Source: Escherichia coli (GTDB lineage: Bacteria; Pseudomonadota; Gammaproteobacteria; Enterobacterales; Enterobacteriaceae). Taken from it: a stretch of 64,000 nucleotides of DNA. The position numbers were made by a program, and so were the translations under genes. Positions 1 through 63,111 of the stretch are shown here, one piece after another (positions within the stretch are counted from its first letter, which is position 1; every line of letters begins with the position of its first letter). The notes beneath the pieces were generated by a model, which was given only the letters and a program-made list of their open reading frames with translations, ran no database searches and had not been told where the DNA came from. Location of the stretch: NCBI RefSeq assembly GCF_036507355.1, contig NZ_AP027877.1; one strand, 5' to 3'.

Positions 1-459
1 GTACTGACCGCTGAACAAGCCCTGAAATTAGTGGGTGAGATGTTTGTTTATCACATGCCATTTAACCGCGCATTGGGGATGGAACTGGAGCGTTACGAAA
101 AAGAGTTCGCACAGCTGGCCTTTAAAAATCAGCCAATGATGGTGGGCAACTGGGCGCAAAGCATTTTGCACGGCGGGGTCATTGCGTCGGCGCTGGATGT
201 CGCCGCCGGTCTGGTGTGCGTGGGAAGTACCTTAACCCGCCACGAAACCATCAGTGAAGATGAACTACGCCAGCGGCTATCGCGGATGGGGACCATTGAT
301 CTTCGCGTTGATTATCTGCGCCCAGGCAGGGGCGAGCGTTTTACTGCAACCAGTAGCCTGTTGCGTGCAGGCAATAAAGTCGCCGTCGCCCGCGTTGAAT
401 TACACAATGAAGAACAGCTTTATATTGCCAGTGCCACCGCCACCTATATGGTAGGTTGA
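1..459 (+). CDS. yigI: PaaI-type acyl-CoA thioesterase YigI; 5' end cut by window start (frame open back to nt 1)
   Basis: ORF 31..459 translation matches remembered YigI; no stop in frame between nt 1 and 31; synteny with rarD. Confidence 0.8.
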
Positions 460-510
460 AGACATAAAAGCAGGTAAACTGCTGTTACCAATTAAAAATG
501 AGTATTCCCG

Positions 511-1401
511 ATGGATGCAAAACAAACGCGGCAGGGCGTATTACTCGCTCTTGCCGCTTATTTTATTTGGGGTATAGCCCCAGCGTACTTCAAGTTGATT
601 TACTACGTGCCCGCCGATGAAATCCTGACGCATCGCGTGATCTGGTCGTTTTTCTTTATGGTGGTGCTGATGAGCATTTGCCGCCAGTGGTCCTATTTAA
701 AAACGCTGATTCAGACGCCACAGAAAATTTTTATGCTTGCAGTCTCTGCCGTGCTGATTGGTGGCAACTGGCTACTGTTTATCTGGGCGGTGAACAATCA
801 CCATATGCTGGAAGCGAGCCTTGGTTACTTTATTAACCCGCTGGTGAACATTGTGCTGGGGATGATTTTCCTCGGCGAGCGATTCCGCCGGATGCAATGG
901 CTGGCGGTGATTCTGGCGATATGTGGCGTGTTGGTTCAGCTGTGGACTTTTGGTTCACTGCCGATCATCGCGCTGGGACTGGCATTTAGTTTTGCCTTCT
1001 ACGGTCTGGTACGCAAGAAGATTGCCGTTGAAGCGCAAACCGGCATGTTAATCGAAACTATGTGGCTGCTGCCCGTGGCGGCAATTTACCTGTTTGCTAT
1101 TGCCGATAGCTCAACCAGCCATATGGGGCAAAACCCGATATCGCTGAATTTACTGCTGATCGCTGCCGGTATTGTCACTACCGTACCGCTGTTGTGTTTT
1201 ACTGCAGCTGCGACACGCCTGCGTCTCTCAACGTTAGGCTTTTTCCAGTACATTGGCCCGACGCTGATGTTCCTGCTGGCTGTGACGTTTTATGGTGAAA
1301 AACCGGGTGCCGATAAAATGGTGACTTTCGCCTTTATTTGGGTGGCGCTGGCAATTTTTGTGATGGATGCAATTTATACTCAACGTAGAACGTCCAAATA
1401 A
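511..1401 (+). CDS. rarD: RarD, EamA/DMT-family transporter
   Basis: 296-aa polytopic membrane ORF, expected length and synteny. Confidence 0.9.
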   Translation: MDAKQTRQGVLLALAAYFIWGIAPAYFKLIYYVPADEILTHRVIWSFFFMVVLMSICRQWSYLKTLIQTPQKIFMLAVSAVLIGGNWLLFIWAVNNHHMLEASLGYFINPLVNIVLGMIFLGERFRRMQWLAVILAICGVLVQLWTFGSLPIIALGLAFSFAFYGLVRKKIAVEAQTGMLIETMWLLPVAAIYLFAIADSSTSHMGQNPISLNLLLIAAGIVTTVPLLCFTAAATRLRLSTLGFFQYIGPTLMFLLAVTFYGEKPGADKMVTFAFIWVALAIFVMDAIYTQRRTSK

Positions 1402-1435
1402 AAAATAAATATATTCTGAAAAAATATGCCGACTC

Positions 1436-1813
1436 TTGCATGAGAGTGGGCATATTGCCATGCTGACAGGAGACTCACACAAGGATGTAAAATTTATGTT
1501 ACGTATGTTTATCCCAACATCTAACGGTAAGATTTCCAGACGCCGTTATATATTTTCATTTATTTTAATAAACTTCATTTTTGCCTTTCTTATTATCTTT
1601 TTTAACGATGGAGAAGCAGGTTTTCTTGTTATAGTCTCTACCATCTTACTCCATTATCTCGTCATCAATCTGAATTGCCAACGACTCCGTGATAGTGGTT
1701 TCGTCTATATAAAAACTTATGTTTTTGGTACATTAGCAGTATATATCATCTCTATCATCACAATGATAGCCGAAGATTTTGCCTGTTCAGGCAATGGTTC
1801 GATGATTTTTTAA
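1436..1813 (+). CDS. yigG: small inner-membrane protein, YigG-like
   Basis: 125-aa hydrophobic ORF in the expected position between rarD and yigF; start codon uncertain. Confidence 0.55.
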
Positions 1814-1888
1814 TTTGTTATTTTTCCACTTTCAGTATGCTAATGCTTGCACCTACTGATTCATCAAAACAATAGTTATGGAGTATTT

Positions 1889-2269
1889 ATGAGTAAGGAA
1901 TATATGAACGATGGTTCATTAAGTGAAAAATGGAAATACCGATTTAATTTTTATGATCAACATGGTTTTCCTGGATTCTGGGGGGCAACACCAGAATATA
2001 AAGCAGCATTTAAAGCATTAAAAGTAAGACAACGCTTAACTATTCAAATGAATTTCATTGCTTTCTTCTGTTCCTAGATATATTTATTTGTCCTGGGGTT
2101 ATGGAAAAAAGCAATTATAGTTCTATTACTTGGTATTCTATCTCTATTTGTTGGTGCACTAATTGGCGTTAACATTCTGGGTATTGCCGTAGCAGCCTAT
2201 GTTGCTGTTAACACGAACAAATGGTTCTATGAGAAAGAAGTAAAAGGGTTAAATACCTGGAGCCTTTGA
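1889..2269 (+). pseudogene. yigF: yigF (DUF2628 membrane protein) interrupted by in-frame TAG at 2075-2077
   Basis: Frame from MSKEY (1889) stops at TAG 2075-2077, then stays open in the same frame for 63 more codons to TGA 2267-2269; 62+1+63 = 126 codons, the length I recall for intact YigF. Confidence 0.6.
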
Positions 2270-2275
2270 ATAAGA

Positions 2276-2310
2276 GGTGGCTTAGCCAGGCTAAGCCACC
2301 GCCTTCTTTT
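2276..2310. terminator. hairpin (GGTGGCTTAGCC/GGCTAAGCCACC) plus T-run between convergent yigF and corA 3' remnant
   Basis: perfect inverted repeat followed by CTTCTTTTT on the + strand. Confidence 0.5.
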
Positions 2311-2446
2311 TACAACCAGTTCTTGCGCTTAAAGTACAGATACGGTGCCAGGCCCGCGAGGATCATAAAGATAATCGCGCCTGGGTAGCCGAAACTCCAC
2401 TTCAGTTCTGGCATAAACTCAAAGTTCATGCCATAGCTGGAGGCAA
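2310..2446 (-). pseudogene. detached corA 3'-terminal remnant (last 44 codons incl. GMN motif); left copy of a 137-bp imperfect direct repeat
   Basis: ORF 2310..2513 ends ...[44 protein letters not shown], identical in amino acids to the C-terminus of full corA at 4017..; upstream part of the ORF is unrelated or decayed. Confidence 0.7.
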
Positions 2447-2637
2447 TCCGCGTAGGAAAAAGTTTCCTAATCGGTAAATTCAACATATTGTTATTAACAA
2501 TGGGCAAAACCAATCAATAACGAGATTCCCTTCGGAATGTAATAAAAATGTGAAGTGTACTTCTTTTTTAAAATTTTTTATCCTAGCATTTGTTCTCAAA
2601 TTGATATTGAGCTTAAATATAACCAAGGAAAATGTAA

Positions 2638-3345
2638 ATGAATAACACATTACTTCCATCAATTAATATTCCCTGTACACTTTTCGAAACTATTAGTTTA
2701 TTTGATGATTATTCTGCTGATGATATGCAATATGGTGATATGGTAGAACAAGATTTTCTCTCACTCGGCCTAAGCGATATCTCAGCAAAAGTTGATCCTT
2801 ACAGACTTATTAAATACCATTTCCCTGGCCCAGGTTCTGTTAATGTTGTTTTTAGTGCCTCAAGTTCCGGAACAAAAATATCACAACGTGAATGCACTGA
2901 TATTTTATTTGCAGAAATGAAAGAACTAGCAAAAAATTTTTCCTTTTTTGGACAATATAAAACACTTATCGAAGATCTGATTGAACATTTTAGATATGGA
3001 AATGGCAGCAATTTTCATAGCCAACAATTAAATTTATCTTTTCATGAAAAGATAAATAAATATGGTTATAATAGTCCAATACGAATAATCAAAGAATGTA
3101 TCGAAAATGGCATTAATTCAACTCCCTCGACAGGATACCAACCTCTTATCCTGCAAAGCATTAAAACCAAATTACTTTCATCAAGACTAAATAAATTTAA
3201 TGACTTCGAGGACAGTTTTAATGGCTTAGGAATCAGTATTCATGATATTTCAGCTCAAAAAAATATCTCTTTTAAGCTTTCAAAAATACGCTATAGGGTG
3301 GAGTGCGACAATTCATTTTGTAGCACAGGACCACTTCGGTCTTGA
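2638..3345 (+). CDS. hypothetical protein, AT-rich cassette gene A; probably frameshifted, C-terminus may continue in +1 frame to 3487
   Basis: 235-aa ORF with AAGGA RBS ~8 nt upstream; ~30% GC; overlapping +1-frame ORF 3242..3487 ends in an ATGA overlap with gene B. Confidence 0.5.
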   Translation: MNNTLLPSINIPCTLFETISLFDDYSADDMQYGDMVEQDFLSLGLSDISAKVDPYRLIKYHFPGPGSVNVVFSASSSGTKISQRECTDILFAEMKELAKNFSFFGQYKTLIEDLIEHFRYGNGSNFHSQQLNLSFHEKINKYGYNSPIRIIKECIENGINSTPSTGYQPLILQSIKTKLLSSRLNKFNDFEDSFNGLGISIHDISAQKNISFKLSKIRYRVECDNSFCSTGPLRS

Positions 3346-3483
3346 TGTAACTGATATCAAAAACAAGACTTACAGCAAATATAGATTTTTTCGCATATGG
3401 TTCTTTTTACAACGGCATAAAGGCTTTGCTTTCAAACCTTTTTTCACCAATTTTAACACTATCGAAAGAATCGAAAATTATCT

Positions 3484-3975
3484 ATGAAAAGCAAACGCCA
3501 GAAAATTATATTATGTTTATTTCTTCTATGCTGTATCTATAATTTATGGACATTGCGTCCTGTACAGATTTTGTATACATACTCTGATGCTGGCAATTCA
3601 GTCTTTCTGGTCGTTGATCATCTGCCATGGACTGACAGCGATAAAATAAATTGGTATCTGAAGCATCAGAATGAAATTAAAAATCAACATCCCCTACCAG
3701 AAGGTAGTTGGCATACCTGGTATGTCATTGATATCGGTAATGGCTTCACTGACTATAAAAAATATATCGAAGGGCCGTATGAAGATCTCTACTGTTTCCC
3801 GACAATTAAGAGCAATGATAATTGCATCGTGAAAAATTACTTAATGGTTATTAATGAATACCCTTATCGTAACACTCATATTGGTATTAACGATTTTACT
3901 GAGTATCAATTAACACAAGAAAATAAAATAGAGCGAGTTTTCAATCCGCATGACTTTAAAAAAGACAATTTTTAG
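3484..3975 (+). CDS. small protein with N-terminal hydrophobic anchor/signal, cassette gene B
   Basis: 163-aa ORF, N-terminus KIILCLFLLCCIYNLW is hydrophobic; start overlaps upstream frame by ATGA; AT-rich. Confidence 0.55.
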   Translation: MKSKRQKIILCLFLLCCIYNLWTLRPVQILYTYSDAGNSVFLVVDHLPWTDSDKINWYLKHQNEIKNQHPLPEGSWHTWYVIDIGNGFTDYKKYIEGPYEDLYCFPTIKSNDNCIVKNYLMVINEYPYRNTHIGINDFTEYQLTQENKIERVFNPHDFKKDNF

Positions 3976-3980
3976 AAATA

Positions 3981-4010
3981 AGCCGGATAAAAAAATAGCT
4001 TTATCCGGCA
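3981..4010. repeat. REP-like palindromic hairpin (GCCGGATAAA...TTTATCCGGC) between cassette gene B and corA stop
   Basis: 10-bp inverted repeat seen directly; motif resembles E. coli REP units. Confidence 0.4.
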
Positions 4011-4016
4011 CTCATA

Positions 4017-4967
4017 TTACAACCAGTTCTTCCGCTTAAAGTACAGATACGGTGCCAGGCCCGCGAGGATCATAAAGATAATCGCGCCTGGGTAGCCGAA
4101 ACTCCACTTCAGTTCTGGCATAAACTCAAAGTTCATCCCGTAGCTGGAAGCAACCAGCGTTGGCGGCAGGAACACGACGGATACCACCGAGAAAATTTTG
4201 ATGATGCGGTTCTGCTCGATGTTGATAAAACCCATTGCCGCCTGCATCAGGAAGTTCACCTTCTGGAACAGGGATTCGTTATGCGGCAGCAGGGATTCGA
4301 TATCTCGCAGGATTTCACGCGCCTGCTCCAGTTGCCCACCCGGTAAGCGTGCTTTACGTACCAGGAAGTTGAGAGCGCGCTGGGTATCCATCAGACACAG
4401 GCGAACTTTCCAGCCGATATCTTCCAGTTCCGCCAGAGTGGAGAGCGCCTCGTCGTACTCATCGCCCTGATGCCCTTCCATAATCACCCGGCTCAATTGC
4501 TCCAGGTCGCTATAGATATTTTCAATTTCATCTGCCAACTGTTCGATTTTGGTTTCGAACAAATCCAGCAGCAACTCGTAGGCGTTACCGTCTACCATCG
4601 ACTGGCTACGGGCACGCATACGATATAGACGAAAAGCGGGCAGTTCACGCTCACGCAGAGTAAACAGACGACCATCACGGATGGTAAATGCCACAGTGGA
4701 GTTACCGGCGTGATCTTCCGCATCTTCAAAGAAGAAGAAGGAGTGAATATGCAGGCCGTCATCGTCTTCAAAGAAACGTGCCGATGCTTCGATGTCTTCC
4801 AGTTCCGGGCGGGTTGCCAGGCTCTGGCCAAGTTCAGATTGTACGCGCAGTCGCTCGTCGTCGTCCGGTTCGACAAGATCAATCCATACTGCATTTACAA
4901 GGGGTTGTGACTCTTCGACTTCCAGCCGGGTCAGTCGGTTATTTTCCAGTTGAAATGCGCTCAGCAT
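4017..4967 (-). CDS. corA: Mg2+/Co2+ transporter CorA
   Basis: ORF 4017..4982; native start [10 protein letters not shown] gives 316 aa; GMN motif and two C-terminal TM segments present. Confidence 0.95.
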
Positions 4968-5336
4968 GACCGGGACTCCCAATGCTTAAAATATCGGACA
5001 GTTCGGTGGGCACACAGAAACAAATTGGGTTTCAGACCATTAAACAGCCTGACTCAGCGCGACGGGAAAAATTGAGGTCGCTGACAACCGCTAAGGCTAT
5101 CAGCAAAAAGGGATAGCCTTAGGAGTTGATCCTGGATGACAGGATAGTGAGCCAGTATCTACTGGGTGTGTCCAAGGCGAATGTCCTCTTAGAGTGATCG
5201 TGCGCGCATGTTACGCCAGCAAAATTTTGCCGTCAACACGCAACAGAACACCACAGAACAATAGTTGAACTTCGCGCTTTTTGGTACTCGTCAAGGTCGC
5301 TAACAGGATAAAAAAATCCCACATCCAGGACCTATA

Positions 5337-6101
5337 ATGGCGCATCGGCTACTCATTGGTAAAGGAATGATCACCTTGAATCTCAAACGGATTTTTCTCG
5401 CCCTCACCTTACTTCCCTTGTTTGTTGTTGCCGCTGATGATTGCGCACTCTCAGATCCGACGCTGACCGTACAGGCGTATACCGTTAATCCTCAAACAGA
5501 GCGGGTGAAAATGTACTGGCAAAAAGCCAATGGCGAAGCGTGGGGAACTTTACATGCTCTGCTGGCGGATATGAATAGTCAGGGTCAGGTGCAGATGGCG
5601 ATGAACGGCGGCATCTATGATGAAAGCTATACGCCGCTCGGTTTGTACATCGAAAACGGTCAGCAGAAGGTGGCGTTAAATCTCGCTTCAGGTGAAGGGA
5701 ATTTCTTTATCCGTCCTGGCGGCGTGTTTTATGTCGCGGGAGATAAAGTCGGCATCGTTCGTCTGGATGCCTTCAAAACCAGTAAAGAGATTCAGTTTGC
5801 GGTGCAGTCAGGGCCAATGTTGATGGAAAACAGTGTAATTAATCCGCGTATTCATCCCAACGTCGCCTCACGTAAAATTCGTAACGGTGTTGGGATTAAT
5901 AAACATGGGAATGCCGTGTTTTTGTTGAGCCAGCAGGCGACAAATTTTTATGATTTTGCCTGTTATGCCAAAGCGAAACTGAACGTTGAGCAGCTGCTTT
6001 ATCTTGATGGCACGATTTCACATATGTATATGAAAGGCGGGGCAATCCCGTGGCAACGCTATCCTTTTGTCACCATGATTTCCGTCGAGCGGAAAGGTTA
6101 A
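5337..6101 (+). CDS. yigE: DUF2233-family protein YigE
   Basis: 254-aa ORF with signal-like N-terminus; expected position between corA and uvrD. Confidence 0.8.
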   Translation: MAHRLLIGKGMITLNLKRIFLALTLLPLFVVAADDCALSDPTLTVQAYTVNPQTERVKMYWQKANGEAWGTLHALLADMNSQGQVQMAMNGGIYDESYTPLGLYIENGQQKVALNLASGEGNFFIRPGGVFYVAGDKVGIVRLDAFKTSKEIQFAVQSGPMLMENSVINPRIHPNVASRKIRNGVGINKHGNAVFLLSQQATNFYDFACYAKAKLNVEQLLYLDGTISHMYMKGGAIPWQRYPFVTMISVERKG

Positions 6102-12754: not shown

Positions 12755-12942
12755 TATGGATTGCCTGTAAAGTTCATCGCTTTCTGCTTTCTATCATCGC
12801 AGGAGAAGGCGTAAAAGCAAGCGTTTAGCGACTCTTTATGAAGTCTGAAAAGTGAGGAAATGCTGCGAGTATAACGCTTACTCGTGGGGATTTATGTTTT
12901 GCTGGTAGTTTCGTGATCGGCACCTCGCGCCAGGATGGCTTT

Positions 12943-14421
12943 ATGCACTATCGCAATGTGGTTTGTTTGTTGGCTTGTTCGTTGTTTTTATCGTCGGCAT
13001 GGGGATGTCGGCTTTCCGCACCTGAACATAATATTTACCAGAAACAGGGAAAAGGCGTGGTGTACCTGCGCCCTTATAAAGAAACAAATCTTTCTCTACC
13101 TGACGTGAATTACAAGAGTTTGCGTCGGTTACCCAATTTATTAATAGACCCGACAACACTAGACGAATGGGATAAAGAACCGCCTCAGACTGATTTGACA
13201 ACCGACTACCTCTATGAGGGCGCACAGGCCTGGTATCCTCATTATTCCTGGTATAGCGATGGTCGCAATATCCTCTACGCGGGTGAAGTTGTGCAAAACC
13301 CTCCCGGCACACCTCCCGTCGATGTCGCCTCGTTCAAGGCATGGGGTGATTTTGCTGCAGATAAACACAGTCTCTATTTTGAAGGCAAGCGCACCGATGA
13401 CAATGGTGGGAGAAATAGCTTAGATATCAAAACGCTGCATCAGGTGGAATTCCGGCCTCCCTGGGCTCCTGACTTACTGGGGCTGATATTACGTGACGCT
13501 AATTTCTTGTATATCAATGGGCATCGCCTCGCTGACCCCGAGAGTTTCCGTGTGCTGGCGCAGAAGTCCTGGGATCAGCGAGGAAAGTTTTCCACCACGT
13601 TTAACCCCTGCGTTGCCGTACCATTCGGCCCCTGGGATACCCTGGCTCGTACACGGACCAAAATCCTGATCAACGGCGAACAGCTTGATGCCGACCCGGA
13701 CACCTTTTCCGTCGTGCGCTGGATGCCCGGCTCACTCTTGACCTGGCGTGATAAAAACGGGCTACAGCGTAAAGTCCTCGACAAGGAAAATCTGGCGTGG
13801 GATGAGGATTTAACAAAGCACTGTCTGGATTTTTCTCTGCTGGAAAAGAAAGTGTTCTGGCGTCAGGGGCCTGACTGTAAACAGGAAGAATTACCGGGAC
13901 TCGATCCGGAACAGTTTCACCCCATCAGTGATGCTGTCGCACAGTATCAGGACTCGCTTTATACCATCATCGAAACAGAGTCTGGTGACCGCAAGCTGGA
14001 GATCGTGAAACTTGATGATCCCAATCTTATTATCAACAAACGTTTCAACGCCGGGAAACGCCACGGCTATTTACTTACGCGTGCCGAAGGGTGGCCATAC
14101 CATTCCGGTTTACACGTGTTTGAATCTGACGGACCGCTGATCTTACTGGATAACCGCTCTCCGGATGAACGCGAAGCCCATCTTAATGACCATCCCTTTT
14201 TGCGCAGATGGTATGCCCGCGATAACCGCTACGTTTACAGCTTTGATGGCGCGCAGCTCTGGCGATACCGCACCGCGGATCCGAAACAAGTTCGCTTAAT
14301 CTGGAAGGAACAACATTCGGGATATGGCTACGGGGTAAATTACAAAACGGGATATCTGGACGGAAAAATTACCGATGACGGCGAATTTATTCCTGCCCCG
14401 CGCAATGAGGCGACAAAATGA
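12943..14421 (+). CDS. secreted repeat protein, paralog A (DKNYY-like repeats); accessory
   Basis: ORF 12913..14421; ATG at 12943 with AGGA upstream; hydrophobic N-terminus; motifs DKHSLYF, DANFLYI, DNRYVYSF; strong similarity to downstream paralog. Confidence 0.6.
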   Translation: MHYRNVVCLLACSLFLSSAWGCRLSAPEHNIYQKQGKGVVYLRPYKETNLSLPDVNYKSLRRLPNLLIDPTTLDEWDKEPPQTDLTTDYLYEGAQAWYPHYSWYSDGRNILYAGEVVQNPPGTPPVDVASFKAWGDFAADKHSLYFEGKRTDDNGGRNSLDIKTLHQVEFRPPWAPDLLGLILRDANFLYINGHRLADPESFRVLAQKSWDQRGKFSTTFNPCVAVPFGPWDTLARTRTKILINGEQLDADPDTFSVVRWMPGSLLTWRDKNGLQRKVLDKENLAWDEDLTKHCLDFSLLEKKVFWRQGPDCKQEELPGLDPEQFHPISDAVAQYQDSLYTIIETESGDRKLEIVKLDDPNLIINKRFNAGKRHGYLLTRAEGWPYHSGLHVFESDGPLILLDNRSPDEREAHLNDHPFLRRWYARDNRYVYSFDGAQLWRYRTADPKQVRLIWKEQHSGYGYGVNYKTGYLDGKITDDGEFIPAPRNEATK

Positions 14422-15743
14422 ATGGTCAAATAATCACTGTTGCACTCATCCTGTTGGGGCACATATTTCTGACGCCTGCTGTACAGGCCATAGGGTTCGA
14501 CTATTACAATGATCACGGTGTTATGTCTTACGGTAAAGGTTATGGGGAGGATGAGAAAATCATTGCCCAATTTCCGAAGATGAACAGAGCCGATTTGCGC
14601 CTTGTGACAAATATATCCGGGGAGCGGGAGTTAGTGGAAGGCTATATACCCACCGATGAAATAAGCATAAAAAATGAGGAATACCACTGGGTGACAGACG
14701 GCCGCGTTATTCTCTGGCGTGGCAAAATCGTTAGCAATCCACCGGGAACACCCACTGTCGATATTGCCAGCTTTCAGGCTATGGGCCGCTTCGCGGTCGA
14801 TAAATATAGCCTCTATTTTGATGGACAGCGCACCGAAAGTAATAGCGGCGCGTCACGTGTTGATCTGGCGACACTAAAAGCTATCGAAGGTAACTCTACC
14901 ACGCTGGTGGATAGTAAAAATCTCTATTTGTCCGGTCGACGTCAGGGGAGCAGCAGTAATGTTACTGTATTAGAAAAAAGATGGTGGGGTATTAATCCAC
15001 GTCTTATGAGTGTAAACAGAAATTTGTATTCCAATGATCTGCTTATCCGCAGTGGGCAGAATATTTATTTAAATGCCGTTCACCTTACAGCGAATGCAGA
15101 CTCATTTGAGATAATTCGCTGGATATCTCATTCACTGCTGGTTTTTCGCGACAATAAGGGTCTGCATCGTTATCCCTTTGGGCAATTGTCTGGCAAAGCG
15201 ATACCCGTAGATGATGACGTCTCTTTTGAAGTAGGGGAAAGTCGCGTTCGCTGGCGTAAACAGCTCACGCCCGACCGTCAGTGGAGCAAGTGGATAGACC
15301 TACCAGGTATTGAACCTGAACAATTTCATCTGATTACTGGCAATATTGCGCAATATAAAGATCGGTTGTATGTAACAAAATTATCGACATTTGGTGAAGA
15401 CCAGCTTGAGATAATCCCGCTGGATACGCCAGACCTGGTCATTGATCACTCATTTAATAGCGGCAAACAGCATGCTTATTTTATCCGCCAATTACGGTCA
15501 AAGAGCGTGCAAATTATTCCAGTTAACGGTCCGCTAACTAAAAACGATCGCTTCGCTTATGACGATCGCAATGTTTATACATGGACCGATACAGAGGTAA
15601 GGATTACACCCTCCCCCTGCCCGGCGAAAACACGCGTCAGAGAAGAGAATGTGCGCGAACTTCACAACAGAGACATTATTATTCCGTTGACGGATGAATC
15701 ATGCCGTAACGCAGCCGCAGAGGTGCAAACTTTGAAGCCCTGA
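14418..15743 (+). CDS. secreted repeat protein, paralog B (DKNYY-like repeats); accessory
   Basis: 441-aa ORF; signal peptide ending AVQA; ATGA overlap with paralog A; shared blocks NPPGTP.VD.ASF and EPEQFH..IAQY.D.LY. Confidence 0.6.
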   Translation: MNGQIITVALILLGHIFLTPAVQAIGFDYYNDHGVMSYGKGYGEDEKIIAQFPKMNRADLRLVTNISGERELVEGYIPTDEISIKNEEYHWVTDGRVILWRGKIVSNPPGTPTVDIASFQAMGRFAVDKYSLYFDGQRTESNSGASRVDLATLKAIEGNSTTLVDSKNLYLSGRRQGSSSNVTVLEKRWWGINPRLMSVNRNLYSNDLLIRSGQNIYLNAVHLTANADSFEIIRWISHSLLVFRDNKGLHRYPFGQLSGKAIPVDDDVSFEVGESRVRWRKQLTPDRQWSKWIDLPGIEPEQFHLITGNIAQYKDRLYVTKLSTFGEDQLEIIPLDTPDLVIDHSFNSGKQHAYFIRQLRSKSVQIIPVNGPLTKNDRFAYDDRNVYTWTDTEVRITPSPCPAKTRVREENVRELHNRDIIIPLTDESCRNAAAEVQTLKP

Positions 15744-15790
15744 CCCCATGCCGCTATACTGCCGCCATCACTTAAAAACAGGATACAACA

Positions 15791-25676: not shown

Positions 25677-26822
25677 CTACTTACTCACCACCAGCAAATG
25701 CGCCTGCATAATGTCGCTGGCCGGGCGACCGTGCGCCAGCAAATCAGCCATTGCTTTAAGATATGGCGGTAGATGGCGGAAATAACGCTGATACCCGGCA
25801 CACAAATAATTCAGCCCCGGTTTGCCGCTGGCATCGAGCATGAAGCGGTGTTTCGGGCAGCCTCCCCAACATGCTTTTAACACGTTACAACTGCGACACT
25901 GCGCCGGTAACTGCTTAAATTTATCTTCACCAAACACCTGCTGTTGCGGGGAATCGATCATTTCTGCAATTGTTTGCTGGTGCATATTCCCCAGTCGATA
26001 TTGCGGATAAACATAGTGATCGCAGGCGTAAACGTCGCCATTGTGCTCAACAATCACCGAGCGCCCACAGGTTGGCTGATGATGGCAAACCGCACCCGGC
26101 GCACCGACAAAATTGGCAAACGCCCATTCGATATTCATCACGAAAATCTTGCCGACGTCGCATTTGATCCAGTGGTCGAATATCGCCACCAGAAATTCAC
26201 CAAATTCATCGGGGCGCACCGACCATTCCGTCAGTTCCCCCTGAATATCACCAGGCGCATGTAGTTTCAGTCCATCGCGGGCAGCTGTTTCATCAGCCAG
26301 GCGCTCGACCACCGGAATAAACTGGATGAATTCGACTCCCGCATCGCACAAAAAATCATATACCTGCAACGGTTGCTGCGCGCTGGTGCGATTAACGCAG
26401 ACCAGCACGTTATAGTCGACATGATGTTTTTGCAGGAACGTCAGGGCACGCATCACCAGCTTATGCGTGGGTCTGCCACCTTTAGTCACGCGATATTGAT
26501 TGTGGATCTCAGCCGGACCATCCAGCGATAACCCAACAAGAAAATGATTTTCTGCCAGAAATGCACACCATTCATCATCGAGCAGCACGCCGTTAGTCTG
26601 GAAGCTGTTACTTATCTTCCTGCCAGCACCATATTTCGCCTGTAGCGCTACGGCACGGCGGTAAAACTCCAGCCCGAGTAGCGTTGGTTCGCCGCCCTGC
26701 CAGGTAAAAGCCACTTCGTTTTGCGGTTCGCTGGCAGCGATATAGTGACGGACATACGCTTCCAGCGTGTCATCGTCCATATGCGTGACTGGCTTTTCGC
26801 GGTAAAGGGATTGTTTTTCGAG
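25677..26822 (-). pseudogene. aslB: aslB (anaerobic sulfatase-maturating radical SAM enzyme), 3' portion downstream of the IS insertion
   Basis: ORF 25677..26849 matches AslB from ...LEKQSLYREKPVTHMDDD onward; its first ~9 codons are IS-derived; the CxxxCxxC triad is absent from this fragment. Confidence 0.8.
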
Positions 26823-27891
26823 GCTGAATTTACAATCCAAGTGCAACAAAAAAAGAAGTACTCATCAACTAGAATATAATTTTGTTTCCACACAAAAACC
26901 ACTTCCAAATGATGAGTACTTCCTACCGACATCTTACAATAAACGAGCGAGAAAAGATAATGATTTTACTCGCACAGGGCAAAAAACAAGCAGAAATTGC
27001 CAAAGCACTGGGACGTAGCTCCAGCACCATTTCTCGCGAGCTGAAACGACACGCTCTAGAAAGCTACAGTGCAACGAACGCACAAAACAGCTATTTGAAG
27101 CATCGTCAAAATAGCAAAGCACAGCGCAAATTAGAGCAGCCTGAATATTTCAATTTGGTGCAAGAAAAGTTTCTGACAGAAAACTGGTCGCCCGAACAAA
27201 TCAGCGCACGATTAAAATTGGAAAAATCTGAATTATCCATTAGTTATTCAACCATTTATCGTGGTATTTATTCAGGGTTGTTTGATATAGGCGAACGCAA
27301 AGCCAGTCGCAAACTGCGCCACAAAGGCAAAACACGGCATACAAAAAATCATCATGAAAAACGTGGCAAAATTCAGATATCCAACCATTTGAACGACCGT
27401 CCCATTTCGGCGCAAAATCGCAGTCGCTTTGGACATTGGGAAGCCGATACCGTACTGGGTAAAGCGGGTGGAGCTTGTTTGCTGACGCTGACGGAACGCA
27501 AAAGTCGTTTTGAGTTGGTGAAGAAAATTCCTGCCAAAAAAGCCGAAGCAGTCCAAAAAGCCATGATTGAATTGCTGGATTCACATATATTGCGGTCAAT
27601 TACGCCAGACCGTGGTAAAGAATTTGCCCAACATCGTTTGGTAACAGAAGCACTGGGTGTAGAATTTTACTTCCCCGAGCCGCATCAACCGTGGACACGG
27701 GGAACGAATGAAAATACAAATGGGTTACTTCGTGAATACTTTCCGAAGCACCAAGACATCAATCAGTGGAGCGAAGTTGATATTCAACAGGTGATCAATA
27801 AACTGAATTTACGACCACGTAAATGTTTAGGTTGGAAAACACCTTATGAAGTTTACTTCAAAAAATCGTTGCACTTGGTTTGACAATTCAA
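26823..27891 (+). mobile_element. IS30-family insertion sequence (ISApl1-like), ~1.07 kb, imperfect ~24-bp terminal inverted repeats, 2-3 bp target duplication (GAG/AG)
   Basis: Left end GCTGAATTTACAATCCAAGTGCAAC; right end (reverse complement) TTGAATTGTCAAACCAAGTGCAAC; GAG flanks both ends; flanks rejoin into continuous aslB; ends +/-2 bp. Confidence 0.8.
26882..27883 (+). CDS. IS30-family DDE transposase
   Basis: 333-aa ORF with N-terminal HTH (LAQGKKQAEIAKALGRSSSTISRELKRH) and C-terminal DDE region (HWEADTV...TPDRGKEF...TRGTNENTNGLLREYFPK); 307 aa if started at the internal Met. Confidence 0.85.
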   Translation: MFPHKNHFQMMSTSYRHLTINEREKIMILLAQGKKQAEIAKALGRSSSTISRELKRHALESYSATNAQNSYLKHRQNSKAQRKLEQPEYFNLVQEKFLTENWSPEQISARLKLEKSELSISYSTIYRGIYSGLFDIGERKASRKLRHKGKTRHTKNHHEKRGKIQISNHLNDRPISAQNRSRFGHWEADTVLGKAGGACLLTLTERKSRFELVKKIPAKKAEAVQKAMIELLDSHILRSITPDRGKEFAQHRLVTEALGVEFYFPEPHQPWTRGTNENTNGLLREYFPKHQDINQWSEVDIQQVINKLNLRPRKCLGWKTPYEVYFKKSLHLV

Positions 27892-27894
27892 GAG

Positions 27895-27984
27895 ATAAAA
27901 ACAGTAGTCACAGTTCAGATTACAATCGGAACCGCTCGGTTTCGCCATCACATGAAAAGCACGCGTTGGAACCTGTTGCAGCAT
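27895..27984 (-). pseudogene. aslB: aslB 5' fragment (N-terminal ~30 codons with radical-SAM Cys triad) separated by the IS
   Basis: minus strand encodes MLQQVPTRAFHVMAKPSGSDCNLNCDYCFYL, then the IS end. Confidence 0.75.
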
Positions 27985-59647: not shown

Positions 59648-59746
59648 CTAAGCCTTTCCTCGTCCAAGTGCAGCCCCGCACGGTGGGGTAATAATCACCA
59701 CCACGCTAATCACGACCAGGCTAATCACTCGTAGAAGGGCTGTCAT
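59648..59746 (-). CDS. ilvL: ilv operon leader peptide IlvL
   Basis: minus strand encodes MTALLRVISLVVISVVVIIIPPCGAALGRGKA, rich in Ile/Val/Leu. Confidence 0.8.
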   Translation of the reverse strand: MTALLRVISLVVISVVVIITPPCGAALGRGKA

Positions 59747-60098: not shown

Positions 60099-61619
60099 AT
60101 GTCACTGTCAATTGTTCATACCCGCGCAGCCCTGGGAGTAAATGCGCCCCCAATCACTGTTGAGGTACATATCAGTAAAGGTTTGCCCGGCTTAACGATG
60201 GTGGGCTTACCAGAAACAACGGTAAAAGAAGCTCGCGATCGCGTGCGCAGCGCCATTATCAATAGCGGATATGAATATCCGGCCAAAAAAATCACCATCA
60301 ACCTGGCTCCAGCCGATCTGCCAAAAGAAGGGGGACGATATGATTTACCTATCGCCATTGCGTTGCTGGCGGCCTCAGAACAACTTACAGCCAATAAGTT
60401 AGATGAATATGAATTAGTCGGAGAACTGGCGCTTACAGGCGCTCTGCGTGGCGTTCCCGGCGCAATCTCCAGTGCAACTGAAGCTATTAAGTCGGGCAGA
60501 AAAATTATCGTCGCGAAAGATAACGAAGATGAAGTGGGGCTAATTAACGGTGAAGGATGCCTGATAGCCGATCATCTGCAGGCTGTCTGTGCGTTTCTGG
60601 AAGGTAAGCACACTCTCGAACGCCCGAAACCAACTGATGCAGTATCCCGGGCGCTACAACATGATCTCAGTGATGTTGTCGGTCAGGAGCAAGGAAAGCG
60701 AGGACTGGAAATTACCGCCGCTGGTGGGCACAACCTTTTACTGATTGGACCGCCGGGAACAGGTAAAACAATGCTCGCCAGCCGTATTAATGGTCTTTTG
60801 CCAGATTTAAGCAATGAAGAGGCACTGGAGAGCGCTGCGATATTAAGTCTGGTAAATGCTGAATCAGTACAAAAACAATGGCGGCAGCGCCCGTTCCGCT
60901 CACCGCATCACAGTGCGTCGTTAACTGCGATGGTGGGCGGTGGTGCAATTCCAGGGCCTGGTGAAATTTCGTTGGCGCATAACGGCGTGCTTTTTCTTGA
61001 TGAGCTACCTGAATTTGAACGGCGTACACTGGATGCTTTGCGAGAGCCGATTGAATCCGGGCAGATCCATCTTTCACGCACACGAGCAAAAATAACCTAT
61101 CCAGCCCGTTTCCAGCTTGTTGCGGCGATGAATCCCAGCCCTACCGGACATTATCAGGGAAACCATAACCGCTGCACGCCAGAACAGACATTACGTTATC
61201 TCAACCGGCTCTCGGGGCCCTTTCTCGACCGCTTCGATCTCTCACTGGAGATCCCATTACCACCCCCCGGCATTTTGAGTAAAACGGTAGTGCCGGGAGA
61301 AAGCAGCGCCACCGTTAAACAACGTGTAATGGCCGCCAGAGAGCGCCAATTTAAGCGGCAGAATAAACTGAATGCCTGGCTGGATAGTCCGGAAATACGC
61401 CAATTCTGCAAACTTGAGAGCGAAGATGCGATGTGGTTGGAAGGAACGCTGATCCATCTGGGGTTATCGATTCGTGCCTAGCAGCGGTTATTGAAAGTTG
61501 CACGAACCATTGCTGATATTGATCAGTCTGACATTATCACACGTCAGCATTTGCAGGAGGCAGTTAGCTATCGTGCCATTGACCGTTTGCTCATCCATCT
61601 GCAAAAACTACTGACATAA
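60099..61619 (+). pseudogene. comM: comM (yifB; Mg-chelatase-like AAA+ ATPase) interrupted by in-frame TAG at 61479-61481
   Basis: ORF 60069..61481 stops at TAG; same frame continues QRLLKVARTIADIDQSDIITRQHLQEAVSYRAIDRLLIHLQKLLT to TAA 61617-61619; 460+1+45 = 506 codons, the length I recall for intact ComM. Confidence 0.65.
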
Positions 61620-63035: not shown

Positions 63036-63111
63036 TGGCAGGGGCGGAGAGACTCGAACTCCCAACACCCGGTTTTGGAGACCGGTGCTCTACCAATTGA
63101 ACTACGCCCCT
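63036..63111 (-). tRNA. trpT: tRNA-Trp (anticodon CCA, wild type)
   Basis: minus strand AGGGGCGTAGTTCAATTGGTAGAGC...anticodon loop CTCCAAA...CCA. Confidence 0.9.

Follow-up and report, generated by a model that had tools for sequence, protein, structure and literature searches.

The two in-frame TAG codons present in a 64-kb window of an Escherichia coli genome (the window being the whole stretch of DNA analysed here) are best read as ordinary loss-of-function mutations at a Dcm 5-methylcytosine hotspot, in which site-specific mutational bias is combined with pseudogenisation; we assign this reading a probability of about 0.8. One stop lies in comM (yifB) and the other in yigF, and both replace a tryptophan codon inside the motif CCTGG (Table 1). 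The mechanism is already known, and neither a new phenomenon nor a suppressor background is indicated. The original prediction had described comM as running for 460 codons to a TAG and then in frame for 45 codons to a TAA, and had counted this as the second TGG-to-TAG event in the window. Both statements are confirmed by the sequence: K-12 has TGG at codon 461, and the companion event is at codon 63 of yigF.

Table 1. Positions in the window of the two amber alleles, their former Dcm sites and the tRNA-Trp gene.
Feature	Position	Strand	Description	Comparison
yigF	1889..2269	+	DUF2628; 126 codons, amber at codon 63	99.2% identity to K-12 yigF
Former Dcm site in yigF	2073..2077	+	CCTGG now CCTAG; G-to-A at 2076, Trp63 TGG to TAG (2075-2077)	reads tgt tcc tag ata; K-12 TCC TGG ATA
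comM / yifB	60099..61619	+	Mg-chelatase-like AAA+ ATPase; 506 codons, amber at codon 461	98.1% identity to K-12 yifB, no gaps
Former Dcm site in comM	61477..61481	+	CCTGG now CCTAG; G-to-A at 61480, Trp461 TGG to TAG (61479-61481)	reads GCC TAG CAG; K-12 GCC TGG CAG
Orphaned comM tail	61482..61619	+	45 codons + TAA; translates to QRLLKVARTIADIDQSDIITRQHLQEAVSYRAIDRLLIHLQKLLT and stop	starts QRLLKVARTIADIDQ, ends HLQKLLT
trpT	63036..63111	-	tRNA-Trp(CCA), wild type; ARAGORN anticodon CCA	exact 76-nt match to K-12 trpT

The interrupted genes and their setting

The window covers yigI through the 3' end of rrnC, inverted with respect to MG1655 (~3.946-4.004 Mb), and taken gene by gene it is 96-100% identical to K-12. 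The strain itself is not K-12: ilvG is intact, with 548 codons, and the nearest RefSeq complete genomes reach only 99.2-99.4% identity. Accessory DNA absent from K-12 includes DUF3289 and DUF943 genes beside a duplicated corA 3' end, a gene for a SAM hydroxide adenosyltransferase and two DKNYY-like ORFs, and one IS30-family element interrupts aslB. An assignment to Shigella was considered, given a best comM identity of 99.2% in RefSeq E. coli and the interrupted K-12 synteny. It was ruled out, as the inserts are ordinary accessory genes except for the single IS30-family element and the proteins are recorded as E. coli. When 47 gap-free aligned genes were compared codon by codon with K-12, exactly two internal stops were found, at comM codon 461 and yigF codon 63.

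At the protein level, comM differs from K-12 by A172T, I194V and the change of W461 to a stop. Codons 460-462 read GCC TAG CAG in the window and GCC TGG CAG in K-12, TUM13936 and S51. The Pfam domains ChlI, Mg_chelatase and a truncated Mg_chelatase_C are recognized, and the NCBIfam model PRK09862 (YifB) matches positions 1-460 of 506 with 1036 bits. The truncated product stops at position 62 of the 94 positions of the Mg_chelatase_C profile, and the orphaned tail matches positions 64-94 of the same profile. The DNA is clearly that of comM, but its product is partial when set against a full-length member of the ComM/YifB family, which has a Lon-like N domain, an AAA+ core and a Mg_chelatase_C lid.

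ComM acts in natural transformation as a hexameric AAA+ helicase for branch migration (Nero et al. 2018; Legionella structures 8rxd, 8rxk, 8rxs and 8rxt). In the Legionella protein the arginine finger of the ATP site is R463 (PMC11612176). The alignment of E. coli YifB to Legionella ComM (8rxd) runs from end to end, over 493 residues with E=1.8e-141, and the two proteins share Lon-like, AAA+ and Mg-chelatase-C domains; in this alignment R459 falls on R463 and W461 on Tyr465. The tryptophan at 461, described in the original prediction as conserved, is thus conserved within E. coli, but with Tyr465 as its Legionella counterpart the position is aromatic and not an invariant Trp. Unlike Legionella ComM, the window copy ends at residue 460 inside Mg-chelatase-C, just past R459, and it lacks the tail motif RLLKV.RTIAD that is conserved in 8rxd. 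Since the stop lies two residues past the counterpart of the arginine finger and removes the conserved RLLKVARTIAD lid helix, the truncated ComM, ending at Ala460, is most likely inactive and would be unable to hydrolyse ATP in a hexamer. Judged from its sequence, the window comM is a pseudogene of the ComM/YifB family and not a functional member. The suggestion of pseudogenisation in the original prediction agrees with RefSeq, in which all six records that exactly match the TAG461 allele (see below) are annotated as pseudogenes ("yifB ... internal stop").

Dcm context, chance and timing

Dcm methylates the inner cytosine of CCWGG on both strands and occurs widely in E. coli, E. coli B being the known exception. 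Deamination of 5-methylcytosine to thymine leaves a T:G mismatch, which is countered by Vsr very-short-patch repair. The ancestral sequence at both ambers is CC(A/T)GG: intact alleles read GCCTGGCAG in comM and TCCTGGATA in yigF, and the window reads CCTAG in both. Each change is a G-to-A at motif position 4 of CCTGG, and each is derived by comparison with K-12 and at least 10 other genomes; at 61480, K-12 and 10 other genomes have G, including the sister contig L044. Assuming that Dcm is active in this strain (dcm-vsr lies outside the window), the methylated C on the non-coding strand, opposite the middle G of TGG, would deaminate to T. A T:G mismatch that escaped Vsr before replication would then become a C-to-T change on the non-coding strand and a G-to-A change on the coding strand, converting TGG to TAG. 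With this geometry, deamination of CCTGG would yield amber and never ochre or opal. That both stops are TAG would follow because CCTGG deamination gives only amber, and suppression is not needed to account for it.

A mutational preference of this kind has precedent. According to Coulondre (1978), as related in PMC12606429, two amber sites in lacI, both on the second C of a CCAGG motif, were over-represented roughly 10-fold, and the effect was absent in the Dcm-less E. coli B. For natural E. coli and Salmonella, the account of Cherry (2018) given in PMC9520237 reports that the C-to-T rate is raised 8-fold where the base is the inner C of CCWGG, and CCWGG is listed among hotspots in PMC13250602.

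The occurrence of two Trp-to-amber changes within 64 kb had been called unusual. Taken alone, two TGG-to-TAG changes are only mildly so (~1-4% under simple transition/transversion models); the placement of both at Dcm positions is far more so. Across 59 genes of the region in their K-12 form, 82 of 5,960 single-base nonsense routes lie at Dcm-methylated positions, and the probability that both nonsense changes would fall there by chance is ~2e-4 to 2e-3 for transition:transversion ratios of 1-10. On these figures, two such changes are not expected without a hotspot. Long-term divergence from K-12 was also considered as evidence for the hotspot and was dropped, as synonymous Dcm positions showed the opposite trend: no excess of K-12-versus-window divergence was found at Dcm targets, with 0 of 136 synonymous third positions differing compared with 5.2% elsewhere (P=0.0013). 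In these data the hotspot thus shows itself solely through nonsense alleles that are recent and recurrent. The low divergence at Dcm sites may stem from a preference for the codons CTG and CAG rather than CTA and CAA, and from Vsr-biased repair towards CCWGG.

Closely related assemblies place the two mutations in time. L021 of GCA_905398585.1 also carries yigF TAG63 and is identical to window positions 1..6078 save for a substitution at 5689 and a 1-bp indel at 3257, whereas comM in the same sister assembly (L044, with 5 differences in 9.3 kb) has TGG461. Because GCA_905398585.1 combines the yigF TAG with the comM TGG, the two ambers arose at different times: the yigF amber predates the sister split and the comM amber is younger and private to the window, making them independent in time and not products of a single burst. 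Over ~36.5 kb compared with the sisters there are 10 substitutions, 3 assigned to the window branch (59688, 60383 and 61480) and 7 to that of the sisters. Relative to GCA_016660925.1, 21 kb contain 0 indels and 4 substitutions, all four derived in the sister. The indel at 3257 is a homopolymer length change (A7 versus A6 at 3251-3257) that is private to the window and frameshifts a DUF3289 gene.

Recurrence across genomes

In public genomes, at least 5 different comM haplotypes carry the TAG461 allele. The exact 460-residue product is recorded as BED24523.1 and is encoded on 14 other contigs (GCA_958309185.1, ERR4564885 and ERR4564886), where TAG461 sits on a haplotype unlike that of the window. 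This second haplotype differs from the window by 11 synonymous changes upstream of the stop and by 15 changes in the tail, of which 13 affect third codon positions, and it equals the intact S51 allele except for the TAG. A 74-mer containing the TAG (61449-61522) is matched exactly in 6 RefSeq complete records, which add three haplotypes: EC21Z-014; O121 201805972, shared with VL7S7; and F11, shared with HCP8S3_I1 and differing from K-12 comM by the TAG alone. A 71-mer around the TAG gave no exact match, its sequence containing the window-specific SNP at 61448. Intact comM genes of L031 and L034 show one other difference from the window haplotype. The K-12-like, O121-like and EC21Z haplotypes are identical over gene positions 1096-1475, and transfer of the TAG among these three by a short recombination tract is conceivable. 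For yigF, the exact 62-residue product is present on 156 contigs, and TAG63 occurs on at least 5 haplotypes, defined over 2.3 kb, among ten places examined; one of these equals K-12 except for the TAG. On this haplotype evidence, both ambers are homoplasic, having recurred independently on unrelated backgrounds.

To survey nonsense alleles in 5,426 RefSeq complete genomes, we used 41-mers centred on the mutant base, which lets megablast seed only in carriers of the mutation. The queries covered all transition-to-stop routes in comM (39) and yigF (16), with flanks of several haplotypes and mismatching spacers (Table 2). Dcm amber routes were matched in 3 of 4 cases, compared with 6 of 51 other transition-nonsense routes (Fisher P=0.012). 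Of the 7 origin events in comM, at least 4 used the 2 Dcm routes among its 39 (P=2e-4). Recurrence at W427, the other Dcm site in comM, involves far fewer events than at W461. Both genes tolerate non-amber (TGA, TAA) nonsense alleles, which argues that both are dispensable; this dispensability, we infer, would allow the mutations to persist.

Table 2. Nonsense alleles recovered in the survey of 5,426 RefSeq complete genomes.
Allele	Site class	Records	Check
comM W461 TAG	Dcm site	6	sequence comparison
comM W427 TAG	Dcm site	2	translation
yigF W124 TAG	Dcm site	2	translation
comM W461 TGA	non-Dcm	8, one O157:H7 clone	translation
comM Q187 TAA	non-Dcm	1	translation
comM R329 TGA	non-Dcm	1	
yigF W15 TAG	non-Dcm	3	
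yigF W31 TAG	non-Dcm	1	
yigF W31 TGA or Q48 TAA (OW1E2, H194)	non-Dcm	1	

The same search was extended to 65 amber-able Dcm sites, comprising comM W427 and 64 sites in other genes of the window (ilv, ECA biosynthesis, rep, uvrD, cyaA, hemD and others, mostly housekeeping). Only comM W427 was recovered; no amber was seen at the other 64 sites in the 5,426 genomes, including W336 of wzxE, whose context is the identical GCCTGGCAG. Among 64 non-Dcm TGG/CAG control sites, no record had a perfect control 41-mer as its best match; a junction in the concatenated query recreated ilvD and produced 2,693 spurious records. The sparing of the 64 other Dcm sites points to real mutations filtered by selection and not to an error process blind to gene function.

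Alternative explanations and known systems

Sequencing error is the main alternative to be weighed. Under this explanation, which we regard as unlikely, the comM TAG in the window genome would be a nanopore consensus error at the Dcm motif, and some of the recurrent TAGs elsewhere might be the same artefact. Dcm motifs were the main residual error class of Enterobacteriaceae nanopore assemblies: with default basecalling models ~70% of nanopore consensus errors fell in CCAGG/CCTGG (Wick, Judd & Holt 2019, PMC6591954), G-to-A and A-to-G are over-represented among nanopore substitutions and GCCTG is an error-prone k-mer (bioRxiv 10.64898/2026.01.14.699587). The comM TAG matches this pattern in motif and in the G/A substitution. 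It is also private to the complete assembly, so that one assembly supports the base, the near-identical draft GCA_905398585.1 having TGG; the private A7/A6 change belongs to the other typical class of long-read error, and the three substitutions private to the window all fall in one 1.8-kb stretch (rough chance ~0.007 for random placement over the 36.5 kb of the comparison). Against this, the assembly is clean, with 1 indel and 3 private substitutions in ~36.5 kb relative to the sister drafts and 0 indels in 21 kb. The yigF TAG is confirmed by an independent sister assembly. The same comM TAG recurs in several samples in fragmented drafts (contigs of 3-93 kb, probably short-read), and errors would ignore gene function, yet housekeeping genes are spared. 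The error explanation moreover bears on the comM base in one genome only, and the allele elsewhere keeps a biological explanation.

A second alternative accepts the mutations and gives them a benefit. At codon 461 there are TAG on at least 5 haplotypes and an independent TGA in the O157:H7 clone, against one event at W427, and on this basis the repeated stops could reflect selection for C-terminal truncation of ComM, with CCTAG ambers perhaps reverting faster through Vsr. We consider this quite improbable. If it were true, the benefit of truncation might lie in shutting off transformation-specific branch migration or in making a poisoning subunit, and Vsr repair of T:G towards C:G would turn Dcm sites in dispensable genes into crude reversible on/off switches.

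The mutational bias raised in the original prediction holds as a site-specific Dcm bias, both changes being CCTGG to CCTAG and recurrent on many haplotypes, but not as a genome-wide one. A mutator biased to G:C-to-A:T that made both stops in the course of general decay is highly improbable. All 10 window-versus-sister substitutions are transitions and are accompanied by one homopolymer indel, which resembles a mismatch-repair-deficient spectrum; however, only 3 of these substitutions are on the window branch compared with 7 on that of the sisters, and the K-12-versus-window spectrum is symmetric (C>T 157 versus T>C 156; G>A 112 versus A>G 96). The yigF amber also predates the sister split, and unrelated lineages carry the same alleles.

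An amber-suppressing background, with partial TAG readthrough that leaves the ambers tolerated or functional, is the least credible of these explanations, being neither needed nor supported: both internal stops are indeed amber, the 45-codon comM tail is still open with no stop or frameshift, and the usual suppressor loci (glnV/glnX, tyrT/V/U, leuX, serU, lysT) lie outside the window, but the deamination geometry fully explains the amber specificity, the comM amber is so recent that an intact tail says nothing on readthrough, the same ambers occur in many unrelated lineages, and an amber suppressor would not rescue the TGA and TAA alleles of comM (W461 TGA, Q187 TAA, R329 TGA). All six tRNA genes of the window (trpT, aspT, argX, hisR, leuT and proM) are identical to K-12, trpT retaining its CCA anticodon as had been noted, and three window genes still end in TAG compared with four in K-12 (ilvA having changed from TAG to TAA).

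The Dcm hotspot reading carries a caution for annotation. An in-frame TAG at a TGG preceded by CC, or at a CAG inside CCAGG, is an expected Dcm product, and CCWGG also concentrates nanopore consensus errors; the five-base context should therefore be checked before suppression, recoding or unusual mutators are invoked. The comM and yigF ambers, being homoplasic, are unsuitable as clonal markers, and they lend further support to comM/yifB and yigF being dispensable in wild E. coli.

In comparison with the CCWGG bias in natural genomes as recounted from Cherry (2018), our alleles share the raised C-to-T at the inner C among close relatives, here in the form of homoplasic nonsense alleles; unlike that work, the present counts concern 4 sites in two genes and not a genome-wide survey. 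With the Dcm hotspots of lacI they share the motif, the methylated position, the G:C-to-A:T transition, the amber product and recurrence at the same base in independent lineages. In lacI the change is CAG to TAG at CCAGG, through the methylated C of the coding strand, whereas here it would be the opposite-strand methylated C of CCTGG that is altered and the codon is TGG. Unlike the laboratory mutants of lacI, the comM and yigF ambers are natural alleles of wild genomes.

Private changes between ilvL and comM

Across about 36.5 kb of comparison with the sister assemblies, which are near-identical genomes, the only substitutions private to the window genome lie at 59688, 60383 and 61480, the last being the base change that creates the comM amber codon. 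The three fall within less than 1.8 kb, from ilvL to comM, a degree of clustering for which we roughly estimate a chance probability of 0.007. A local event, recombination with an unsampled donor and an assembly problem are all possible causes. At 59688, where all 11 of the 11 other genomes compared carry the ancestral base, the T-to-C change replaces Ile20 of the ilvL leader peptide with Thr, converting VVVIII to VVVIIT, and the ilvGMEDA attenuator thereby loses one regulatory Ile codon. The sole indel across the same comparison is a run of seven A residues in the DUF3289 gene, which has six in the sister assembly; the gene is frameshifted and encodes 235 rather than 282 aa. The difference reflects either real slippage in the homopolymer or an error in its assembly.

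Coordinates of altered genes and of the inserted element in the window
Feature	Position	Strand	Remark
yigG	1496-1875		Frameshift relative to K-12
DUF3289 gene	2638-3345		A7 run at 3251-3257
aslB, pieces flanking the IS30-family element	25677-26822 and 27892-27984
IS30-family element	26823-27891		Inside aslB; 333-aa transposase ORF at 26882-27883
ilvL	59648-59746	-	Private T-to-C at 59688

Disrupted genes and accessory DNA

Next to yigF, yigG has lost 1 bp near codon 104, where the T7 run of K-12 is reduced to T6, and the deletion is common to the sister contig L021. Together with the yigF amber codon, this frameshift means that both adjoining genes are broken in the window lineage. The transposase encoded within aslB matches the NCBIfam model transpos_IS30 with 309 bits, and the element has imperfect terminal inverted repeats and a 3-bp target duplication. 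Because aslB is unbroken (411 aa) in the sister assembly GCA_016660925.1, the insertion is private to the window genome.

Two copies of the terminal ~140 bp of corA, at 2310-2446 and 4017-4160, share ~96% identity and bracket the DUF3289/DUF943 accessory genes. The duplicated 3' end resembles a scar left when an island inserted at this site; the island is present in some genomes with the yigF amber codon and absent from others. Between lptM and cyaY, ~3 kb (12755-15790) lack a K-12 counterpart and hold two ORFs (502 and 441 aa) that overlap and whose matches to the DKNYY family are only borderline (~25 bits).

Dcm sites and comM codon 461

In 47 genes aligned with K-12 across the window, none of the 136 synonymous third codon positions that are Dcm targets differs from K-12, whereas 5.2% of the remaining synonymous C/G sites do (Fisher P=0.0013). 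A simple hotspot would predict the reverse for long-term divergence; possible causes are codon bias or Vsr repair that favours CCWGG.

In one O157:H7 clone, codon 461 of comM is also a stop codon, reading TGA (GCC TGA CAG) in strain 4276 and in seven further O157:H7 records; most of these isolates come from cattle. Unlike the TAG at 61479-61481 in the window, this TGA arises by another base change, one that is not of the Dcm type.
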